Shown here one piece after another: positions 8,157-8,554 of a stretch of DNA of 12,045 bases. The stretch is from the UHGV virus genome UHGV-0169025. One strand, written 5' to 3'. The translations under genes and the position numbers were made by a program. The notes below the pieces were generated by a model. It did not search any database. It was not told the DNA's origin and worked only from the letters and a program-made list of their open reading frames with translations. The stretch comes from a virus. Position 1 is the first letter of the stretch, and each line of letters begins with the position of its first letter.

Positions 8157-8186
8157 AAACCCGCTTAATCGCGGGTTTTTTCTTTT
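8157..8186 (+). terminator. Rho-independent terminator ending the rightward arc/antirepressor operon
   Basis: AAACCCGC (8157-8164), loop TTAATC, GCGGGTTT (8171-8178), followed by TTTTTCTTTTC. The hairpin overlaps the stop codon of the convergent minus-strand Mnt-like gene. Confidence 0.65.
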
Positions 8187-8422
8187 CTAAGAATATCAGC
8201 CGCAACTTCTTTTACTCGTTCCGAGATTAATGAGGCAAGCCTCTCTTCTTCATCACGATACCCGCTTACAGGTGATGGTTTGGAGAGCGATTCTTCCATC
8301 GTAGCCACAATTTCGGAATTGATAGACCTGTTATTCATTTTTGCACGTTGCTTAATCTTGGCGTGCAACTCGTGCGTAAGCCTCAAGTGGAACTGCGCCT
8401 CATCGTATTTGCTGTACATCAT
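8165..8422 (-). CDS. mnt: Ribbon-helix-helix repressor, Mnt-like (closest to P22 Mnt including the C-terminal region)
   Basis: 85 aa from ATG 8422 (MMYSKYDEAQFHLRLTHELHAKIKQRAKMNNRSINSEIVATMEESLSKPSPVSGYRDEEERLA...). The SKPSPVSGYRDEEERLA stretch matches my recollection of P22 Mnt (SKPSPVTGYRNDAERLA), together with the N-terminal RHH. The 217-aa ORF-track model runs antisense into the tailspike start and is rejected. Confidence 0.75.
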   Translation of the reverse strand: MMYSKYDEAQFHLRLTHELHAKIKQRAKMNNRSINSEIVATMEESLSKPSPVSGYRDEEERLASLISERVKEVAADILRKEKTRD

Positions 8423-8554
8423 CAATGCCTCACCAAATGGGTGGAATGGCATCGTAAAACCTACTGTACAAATCAACAATCGTACCGTTTCGGTATGCAA
8501 CAAATACCAACCGTAGCCACGCTTCGGTGATTCCTTGTATCTGGAGCAAATTAA

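Follow-up and report, generated by a model that had tools for sequence, protein, structure and literature searches.

A lone mnt cassette with a predicted operator of its own between the antirepressor operon and the tailspike gene of a P22-like prophage

A small RHH repressor gene that is transcribed away from the tailspike gene, in a prophage that also carries a complete antirepressor operon directly upstream, raises the question of what this repressor controls. The locus analysed here lies in a stretch of 12,045 nucleotides of virus genome UHGV-0169025, referred to below as the window. A sequence-only reading of this DNA had described the gene as a second Mnt paralog, and had proposed that it might cross-regulate the antirepressor promoter together with the RHH repressor of the first switch, or that it might give the prophage a second immunity specificity. 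The window comes from a P22-like (Lederbergvirus) prophage, of which it covers a part, and very similar prophages adjoin tRNA-Arg in E. coli. Among 5426 complete E. coli genomes, the Mnt region is present in 102, and the whole two-module arrangement, composed of the antirepressor switch and Mnt, in 25. The genes and signals of the window are arranged as follows:

First in the gene order: ejection-protein genes
5166-5837, minus strand: SieA-like membrane ORF
5855-6106, minus strand: RHH gene (RHH1)
6107-6211: control region of the first switch
6212-6403: Arc-like gene (Arc1), in the operon divergent from RHH1
6404-6476, minus strand: sar homologue
6477-7115: Ant, an antirepressor with Bro-N and P22_AR_C domains
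7204-7929: second antirepressor-family gene, 241 aa (phrog_1726)
7929-8150: 73-aa ORF
8157-8178: GC-rich terminator hairpin, from a terminator scan and the sequence
8165-8422, minus strand: mnt, coding for an 85-aa RHH repressor (Mnt2)
8423-8554: mnt-tailspike intergenic region, 132 bp
8555-10729, plus strand: tailspike gene, with a P22-type head-binding N-terminus
After the tailspike gene: integrase gene

The hairpin at 8157-8178 is a strong terminator on the plus strand and is common to the antirepressor operon and mnt, which converge on it. This hairpin encloses the final four codons of mnt together with its stop codon, and it probably also terminates transcription on the minus strand, more weakly. 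An Rfam scan of 5800-8800 yielded just one hit, a sub-threshold match to symR at the position of sar. Current records label the mnt gene as an “Arc family DNA-binding protein” in E. coli genomes and as a “partition protein ATPase” in phage RefSeq entries and in PHROGs.

The minus-strand ORF, which stops at 8165, extends mechanically to 8818, the true start being ATG 8422 or the in-frame ATG 8419, which is the start in most homologues (MYSKY...). The protein matches the Pfam Arc family (PF03869, E=4e-15, residues 8-53), the P22 Mnt chain in PDB entry 1MNT (residues 3-75 of 76 aligned, E=3e-16) and phrog_795, the P22 Mnt family (E=6.5e-33), and it is 46.6% identical to P22 Mnt. Residues F11, R14, N30/R32/S33 and N35 of Mnt2 are common to P22 Mnt and Arc. 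The earlier description of a Mnt-type RHH repressor divergent from the tailspike agrees with the PF03869 and 1MNT matches and with the gene layout, and the Mnt-type C-terminal segment is also recognizable, as the Mnt2 linker SKPSPVSGYRDEEERLA corresponds to SKPSPVTGYRNDAERLA in P22 Mnt. P22 Mnt is a tetramer, and the C-terminal extension of Mnt2 is homologous to the Mnt tetramerisation region, the feature that discriminates Mnt from Arc; the final ~20 residues are of a different variant from those of P22 Mnt. Regarding RHH1, its match to 1MNT is confined to the RHH core (residues 6-45), and it is at least as near to AmrZ. Since the 1MNT alignment is full-length for Mnt2 and core-only for RHH1, Mnt2, not RHH1, is the true full-length homologue of P22 Mnt, and RHH1 is a more remote repressor of the RHH type whose C-terminus is unrelated. 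The numbering of the two genes has thus to be reversed with respect to the “second” paralog first proposed: the full-length Mnt is the one at 8165-8422, whereas the gene at 5855-6106 shares the RHH core only. That P22 itself has one mnt is borne out by its immI record (X01916), where the gene is divergent from arc.

Another assignment of Mnt2 was discarded, that of an RHH antitoxin in a toxin–antitoxin pair. The weak HicB and FitA-like Pfam matches of the protein reflect the generic RHH core only, and mnt has no co-transcribed toxin gene beside it: it is monocistronic, its stop codon is overlapped by the hairpin, and the neighboring gene is convergent.

The region upstream of mnt had been given as 132 bp long with an inverted repeat TACCG-TTT-CGGTA, and both are confirmed, at 8423-8554 and 8483-8495, respectively. 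Its elements are listed from the mnt start toward the tailspike gene:

8428-8434, minus strand: Shine-Dalgarno GGTGAGG of mnt, 5 nt ahead of ATG 8422 and kept across the 71 aligned intergenic regions
8445-8453, plus strand: 9-mer AATGGCATC, overlapping the -10 and start region of the mnt promoter
8451-8456, minus strand: TACGAT, predicted -10 hexamer of the mnt promoter; its distance from the ATG equals that of the P22 Pmnt -10 to within 1 nt
8474-8479, minus strand: TTGTTG, predicted -35 hexamer of that promoter (relatives have TTGAGT, TTGTGG or TTGAGG)
8481-8497: 17-mer CGTACCGTTTCGGTATG, the predicted operator for Mnt; its perfect core is at 8483-8495
8498-8554, plus strand: tailspike leader, with a small hairpin at 8510-8528 and the Shine-Dalgarno GGAG at 8543-8546

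The left half of this spacer matches the P22 immI control region element by element, according to the features annotated in X01916 and to the alignment, and the Shine-Dalgarno sequence holds the corresponding position in both. The P22 17-bp Mnt operator AGGTCCACGGTGGACCT is replaced by CGTACCGTTTCGGTATG, one base beyond the promoter -35; it begins 59 nt from the mnt ATG, compared with 58 nt for P22 Omnt, and the two occupy the same alignment columns. Mnt2 thus has, as is the case in the Mnt family, a 17-bp two-fold symmetric predicted operator adjoining the -35 of the leftward promoter that serves its gene. Since 45% of shuffled sequences contain a 5+5 palindrome whose arms are 5 nt or less apart, the inverted repeat on its own is statistically unremarkable; it acquires meaning from its positional homology and from the covariation described below. 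No second copy of the operator was found, either with fewer than three mismatches in the 13-mer in a scan of the window, or with fewer than four mismatches in the 15-mer in the window and in the complete 39-kb genome of Escherichia phage JEP4.

In the mnt promoter, TACGAT takes the place of the P22 Pmnt -10 TATCAT, and TTGTTG that of the -35 TTGAGA. The arrangement TTGTTG-17-TACGAT is the top-scoring promoter of the region, and its score of 9.4 is little higher than 8.3, the median obtained for random background windows; the assignment therefore rests on homology. In relatives the -10 reads TACGAT, TATGAT or TAAGAT, with the critical T1, A2, A5 and T6 retained. The mnt leader shows no hairpin that would sequester the ribosome-binding site, the folding energies being like those of shuffled sequences (z = -0.63, +0.56 and -1.27). 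No Arc operator was detected either, since the corresponding stretch, 8452-8470, contains no inverted repeat and its alignment with P22 consists of scattered identity. From about position 8509 on, the spacer is homologous to the leader that comes after the ant terminator in phage epsilon34. The leader hairpin at 8510-8528 is kept mostly via G-C/G-U changes, and its covariation is weak. Judging from these alignments, the region is in effect an immI control region that lacks arc, sar and ant together with the terminator of ant, leaving the Mnt operator abutting the tailspike leader.

This arrangement is widespread. Mnt is divergent from the tailspike gene in phages JEP4, VSe13, Sf101, IME10, Gally, ST64T and ST160 and in 80 IMG/VR contigs; the GTDB genome scan yielded six loci only. 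The alignment of 71 distinct spacers shows conservation from the ribosome-binding site through the operator. Compared with the window, 5-25% of the left-spacer positions differ, against 24-48% in the right spacer, one compared locus excepted, and 32-52% at the third codon positions of mnt. The left spacer thus changes 2-4 times more slowly than the neighboring synonymous sites, while the tailspike-leader half diverges at the same rate as such sites. The mnt gene has a dN/dS of 0.02-0.05, with saturated dS (dN 0.03 and dS 1.05 between the window and VSe13). By these rates the mnt gene is under strong purifying selection, and the left spacer is apparently selected as well, although the conservation of the left spacer could largely stem from recent shared ancestry of a mosaic block. 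Among ~94 extractable coding sequences, a single one is disrupted, by a nonsense codon in a Citrobacter prophage; outside this set, Klebsiella phage phiKp_30 carries a copy that lacks the β-strand.

The operator class covaries with the DNA-reading β-strand of the protein, in three classes only:

AQFHLRL, operator GTACC-N5-GGTA(T/C): window, Sf101, VSe13
PQFNLRL, operator AGACCAC-N-GTGGTCT: Gally, ST64T, ST160 and others
PHFNFRM, operator AGGTCCACGGTGGACCT: P22

The recognition residues, Q/H/R in Mnt2, correspond to H6/N8/R10 in P22 Mnt. In the AQFHLRL class the outer half-sites GTACC and GGTA are fixed and the central bases are variable. With three classes, the covariation is supportive rather than decisive, and it favors a DNA specificity proper to Mnt2, in which AQFHLRL would be paired with CGTACCGTTTCGGTATG instead of the PHFNFRM/AGGTCCACGGTGGACCT pair of P22. 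The operator pattern was found in at least 120 IMG/VR stretches, and Mnt adjoins it in every evaluable one.

The sequence-only reading had proposed comparative genomics to see whether the gene travels with particular tailspike types. It does not: the tailspikes of 41 loci whose tailspike gene is complete and whose Mnt is 98% or more identical fall into 25 receptor-domain clusters. Joint travel with the first switch was likewise rejected, as the same 41 loci display at least five kinds of upstream switch, among them RHH1/Arc1, two other RHH variants, and a C2-like repressor with a 57-aa partner. By these comparisons, the Mnt cassette is tied neither to the antirepressor switch upstream nor to a type of tailspike.

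The best explanation for the locus, to which we assign a probability of about 0.55, is that of a self-contained “lone mnt” cassette, which autoregulates via a single operator and possibly forms a barrier ahead of the tailspike gene. In the lysogen, Mnt2 would be made from its own monocistronic unit, formed by promoter, gene and the terminator at 8157-8178. A Mnt2 tetramer, by analogy with P22 Mnt, would bind the single operator at 8481-8497 and, because the operator abuts the mnt promoter at its -35, this binding would set the level of the protein itself. The bound repressor, located ~58 bp before the tailspike start, could in addition act as a barrier to rightward transcription that is not antiterminated, for instance transcripts reading through from the antirepressor operon or arising from what is left of Pant. 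This barrier step is the least certain part of the proposal, and we prefer it with modest confidence. Two observations count against the explanation: antiterminated late transcription must cross the operator anyway, and several contigs tolerate an HNH endonuclease gene inserted where the spacer meets the tailspike gene.

A more specialized role may also be envisaged, although we consider it rather unlikely: the Mnt–operator pair might be kept as a purpose-built unit tied to the tailspike gene, or Mnt might have an unrecognised target in trans, in the host or in other phages. In the first case the bound protein would be a gate, either a roadblock to transcription or one that works by collision from its own promoter, and such a gate would insulate the tailspike gene from transcription of the prophage or of the antirepressor operon, or would set the tailspike dose. 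If this were true, the invariant linkage of Mnt, operator and tailspike leader in more than 100 contigs, selected despite the loss of Pant, would represent an undescribed function of Mnt.

The idea of a second immunity specificity implies that Mnt2 acts in trans, silencing the antirepressor promoter of superinfecting relatives with the same operator and preventing induction. A resident P22 Mnt silences the incoming genome too. Mnt2 is compatible with such a role in being monocistronic, selected and provided with a single site in cis, and the three specificity classes are what immunity determinants would show; the P22 protein, moreover, represses transcription of arc and ant (PMC11016777). Nevertheless, among the IMG/VR matches listed, the tailspike gene comes next in 109 of the 114 evaluable stretches with this operator class and arc or ant in none. 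Immunity against phages with a matching antirepressor is therefore disfavored, and a tie in cis to the tailspike gene favored. In addition, the homologues with a Mnt2-type N-domain in cultured phages are all lone or tailspike-adjacent, and we regard the immunity role as unlikely.

Classical control of Pant is less probable still. According to this explanation, a weak rightward promoter lying over the operator would fire into the tailspike gene and be repressed by Mnt2 in the lysogen. The geometry is that of P22, in which Omnt covers the Pant start, and the counterpart of the Pant -10 region, CCTACTG.A.AAAT, is conserved. However, consensus and position-weight scans of this locus and of five other lineages revealed no sigma-70 promoter directed rightward into the tailspike gene. 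The hexamers equivalent to those of Pant, ATGGCA and TACAAA, are degenerate and wrongly spaced, at 15 nt, and no rightward candidate -10 has both A2 and T6. The best rightward candidate scores 5.3, lower than the background median of 8.3 and far from the 16.8 of P22 Pant. The same state, with the leftward promoter kept and the Pant hexamers degenerate, is found in ST64T, ST160, Gally, Sf101 and VSe13.

Cross-regulation between Mnt2 and RHH1, where Mnt2 (or RHH1/Arc1) would act on the other control region via AATGGCATC, seems to us very improbable. The 9-mer is indeed present in both control regions, at 6170-6178 and at 8445-8453 as the sequence-only reading had indicated, and in the first of them it lies within repeated GCATCAT-type units that resemble operator half-sites. 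Yet the match is no better than chance (P about 0.1): at least one common 9-mer occurs in 12% of dinucleotide-shuffled pairs and in 10% of random pairs of window segments of these sizes, 46 distinct 9-mers occur three or more times in the window, and AATGGCATC itself has a third copy within the tailspike gene, at 9023-9031. The two positions are not equivalent either. The copy at 6170-6178 falls in the spacer of the rightward promoter (TTGACA at 6156-6161 and CATAAT at 6178-6183), whereas the one at 8445-8453 is at the mnt -10 and aligns with the P22 Pant -35 (ATTGACATG). The motif in the Mnt2 spacer, GCATCGT, is in single copy, without a partner at the distance seen in the first region, and the first region lacks the Mnt2 operator. 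Furthermore, AATGGCATC is present whatever the type of switch: the Mnt–tailspike spacer contains it in 19 of 20 loci with an unrelated C2-like repressor upstream and in 18 of 30 without any antirepressor, and RHH plus antirepressor modules related to the first switch exist in at least 58 contigs without a Mnt2-type Mnt. The first module has parts of its own, namely the strong rightward promoter TTGACA-16-CATAAT, dense palindromes and repeats, and a clear sar homologue, and control of the antirepressor operon at 6107-8150 is best explained by its own RHH1/Arc/sar switch.

A decaying, functionless immI remnant hitchhiking with the tailspike gene, a possibility raised by the authors of the phage L study (PMC8022706) and to which the loss of Pant and the damaged Citrobacter and phiKp_30 copies would lend some weight, is equally hard to credit in view of the low dN/dS at saturated synonymous sites, the operator retained and co-evolving with the protein, the slow left spacer and the one disruption in ~94 loci; the non-expressed remnant that the sequence-only reading had weighed against its own proposal is thus also contradicted by the selection data.

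Returning to the lone mnt cassette with autoregulation as the preferred reading, its comparison with P22 immI shows what has been kept and what has been replaced. Homology to Mnt is full-length in both, extending over the RHH domain, the SKPSPV.GYR linker and the C-terminal helix; mnt is sited between gene 16 and the tailspike gene; and a leftward promoter and a 17-bp symmetric operator are found at matching distances from the ATG. In P22, arc, sar and ant follow downstream, whereas in the window the operator is fused to the tailspike leader instead, and the strong Pant and the Arc operator of P22 have as counterparts only degenerate hexamers and no Arc operator, respectively. The recognition residues, the operator sequence and the distal C-terminus of P22 Mnt all differ from those of Mnt2 and its locus. 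Because there is no Pant, arc or ant under the control of Mnt, the locus is not a P22-type immI switch.

The closest parallels are other phages with a lone mnt. Such a gene, placed in the variable “ant moron” that separates gene 16 from the tailspike gene, is known in ST64T, ST104 and Para1, and E. coli prophages of this kind have been diagrammed in the epsilon34 genome paper, which also remarks on a possible effect of Mnt and Arc on transcription entering the tailspike gene (PMC2629481). For the lone mnt of phage L, two possibilities were left open, a remnant or a gene that “could have acquired another function” (PMC8022706). In the Salmonella phages ST64T, ST104 and L, as also in ST160/SE1, Escherichia phage Gally, Shigella phage Sf101 and coliphage IME10, mnt is divergent from the tailspike gene as it is here, and phages of the ST64T/L/ST104 type have a spacer of ~120-145 bp in which the palindromic operator and the leftward promoter are kept and Pant is lost. 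The 132-bp spacer of the window, with nothing else between mnt and the tailspike gene, reproduces the layout of ST64T, ST160, Gally, Sf101 and IME10. There are two differences. ST64T, ST160 and Gally belong to the PQFNLRL/AGACCAC class and the window to the AQFHLRL/GTACC class, and the ST64T/L/ST104 type has no antirepressor in the region, whereas the window has a complete, separately regulated antirepressor operon directly upstream. Mnt proteins 98-100% identical to Mnt2, with an identical left spacer, occur in JEP4 and ~40 IMG/VR contigs, where the same Ant, 241-aa antirepressor and 73-aa ORF are found upstream. The switch itself is interchangeable: JEP4 has a C2-like repressor and a 57-aa protein in this place, and the others have RHH1/Arc1 or different RHH variants.

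These comparisons correct the annotation logic for a common prophage gene, and they show that these prophages carry the antirepressor module and the Mnt cassette as mosaic units independent of each other. A lone Mnt and its co-evolving operator, maintained by selection though the promoter that they repress in P22 is gone, sharpen an old loose end in the biology of P22-like phages. In relation to the systems already described, the locus is another member of the lone-mnt group, of a distinct specificity class, joined to a separately regulated antirepressor operon.

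Mnt homologues from loci L001-L094 fall into three classes by their N-terminal DNA-binding domain (window-type, Gally-type and P22-type) and carry at least four variants of the C-terminal region, and the two parts have been reassorted independently. The protein of locus L081 joins a Gally-type N-domain to the C-terminus found in the window, and that of L066 a window-type N-domain to a P22-type C-terminus. The recombination joint lies near the SKPSPV linker. The antirepressor operon with the 241-aa and 73-aa genes is adjacent in 40 of the 41 loci encoding the window-type C-terminus (...ISERVKEVAADILRKEKTRD). 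Where Mnt is less than 98% identical, usually with a different C-terminus, it stands without antirepressor genes alongside in 28 of 36 loci. A functional tie between this C-terminus and the operon would be a possible explanation of such an association, which is likely due to simple linkage of adjacent DNA.

The terminator stem-loop at 8157-8178, common to mnt and the convergent antirepressor operon, encodes the last four codons of mnt (K-T-R-D) and its stop codon. Damaged copies of the gene occur in a Citrobacter prophage (L009, 4001-4252), with a nonsense codon at position 5, and in Klebsiella phage phiKp_30 (L299, 2956-3198), where unrelated sequence takes the place of the β-strand.

The non-coding elements located around the repressor and antirepressor genes are the following:

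6160-6184: 8+8 palindrome CATTATGA-N9-TCATAATG, across the promoter spacer in the control region of the first switch
6190-6210: perfect 9+9 palindrome ATGACATCA-TGG-TGATGTCAT, in the same control region
6404-6476, minus strand: antisense RNA homologous to P22 sar, in the interval separating the Arc-like gene from the antirepressor gene
7133-7209, minus strand: second sar-like unit, complementary to the start of the 241-aa antirepressor-family gene and to its ribosome-binding site
8510-8528, plus strand (pairing fits a rightward RNA): small tailspike-leader hairpin ACCGTAGC-CAC-GCTTCGGT

The control region of the first switch (6107-6211) is dense in symmetric and repeated elements, containing, in addition to the two palindromes, tandem 19-bp units and two copies of TATGAGCAAT. 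RHH1 and Arc1, the two proteins encoded on either side, probably use these palindromes and repeats as operators.

The sar homologue is preceded by a leftward promoter (TTGGAA-18-TACAAT, 6512 to 6483) and ends in a strong hairpin followed by Us, with a predicted fold of -33.3 kcal/mol (z = -5.07). The annotated sar region of epsilon34 can be aligned with it; in Rfam, the interval yielded only a sub-threshold symR match and none to a sar-type family. The second unit, which shares TGTAGCAAA with the first, has its own leftward promoter (GTGACA-17-TACATT, 7244 to 7216) and leftward terminator (7168 to 7142); its folding support is weaker (z = -1.86).

The tailspike-leader hairpin persists in diverged lineages, where it is preserved chiefly by G-C/G-U and C-G/U-G substitutions. 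These are compatible with pairing in the rightward RNA alone, and the covariation term is low. The leader of epsilon34 gene 19, located 3′ of the ant terminator, has this hairpin too. In three loci (L017, at 3316-3858, L023 and L027), an inserted 180-aa ORF separates the Mnt spacer from the tailspike gene and supplies the tailspike with a new N-terminal start. The sequence motifs of this ORF suggest an HNH/AP2-type homing endonuclease, as does the “HNH endonuclease” annotation that phage Kapi1 has in the corresponding position. Escherichia phage JEP4 (L001, 6524-6846) carries a different, AT-rich insert of about 300 bp at the same point.

RefSeq phage records and PHROG 795 give homologues of P22 Mnt the name “partition protein ATPase”, seemingly a propagated misnomer for RHH repressors of 83 aa. 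The gene beside RHH1 has a family match:

5166-5837, minus strand: 223-aa membrane ORF, matching phrog_7745 (SieA-like superinfection exclusion) with E = 1.9e-20

Its relative position equals that of sieA in P22.
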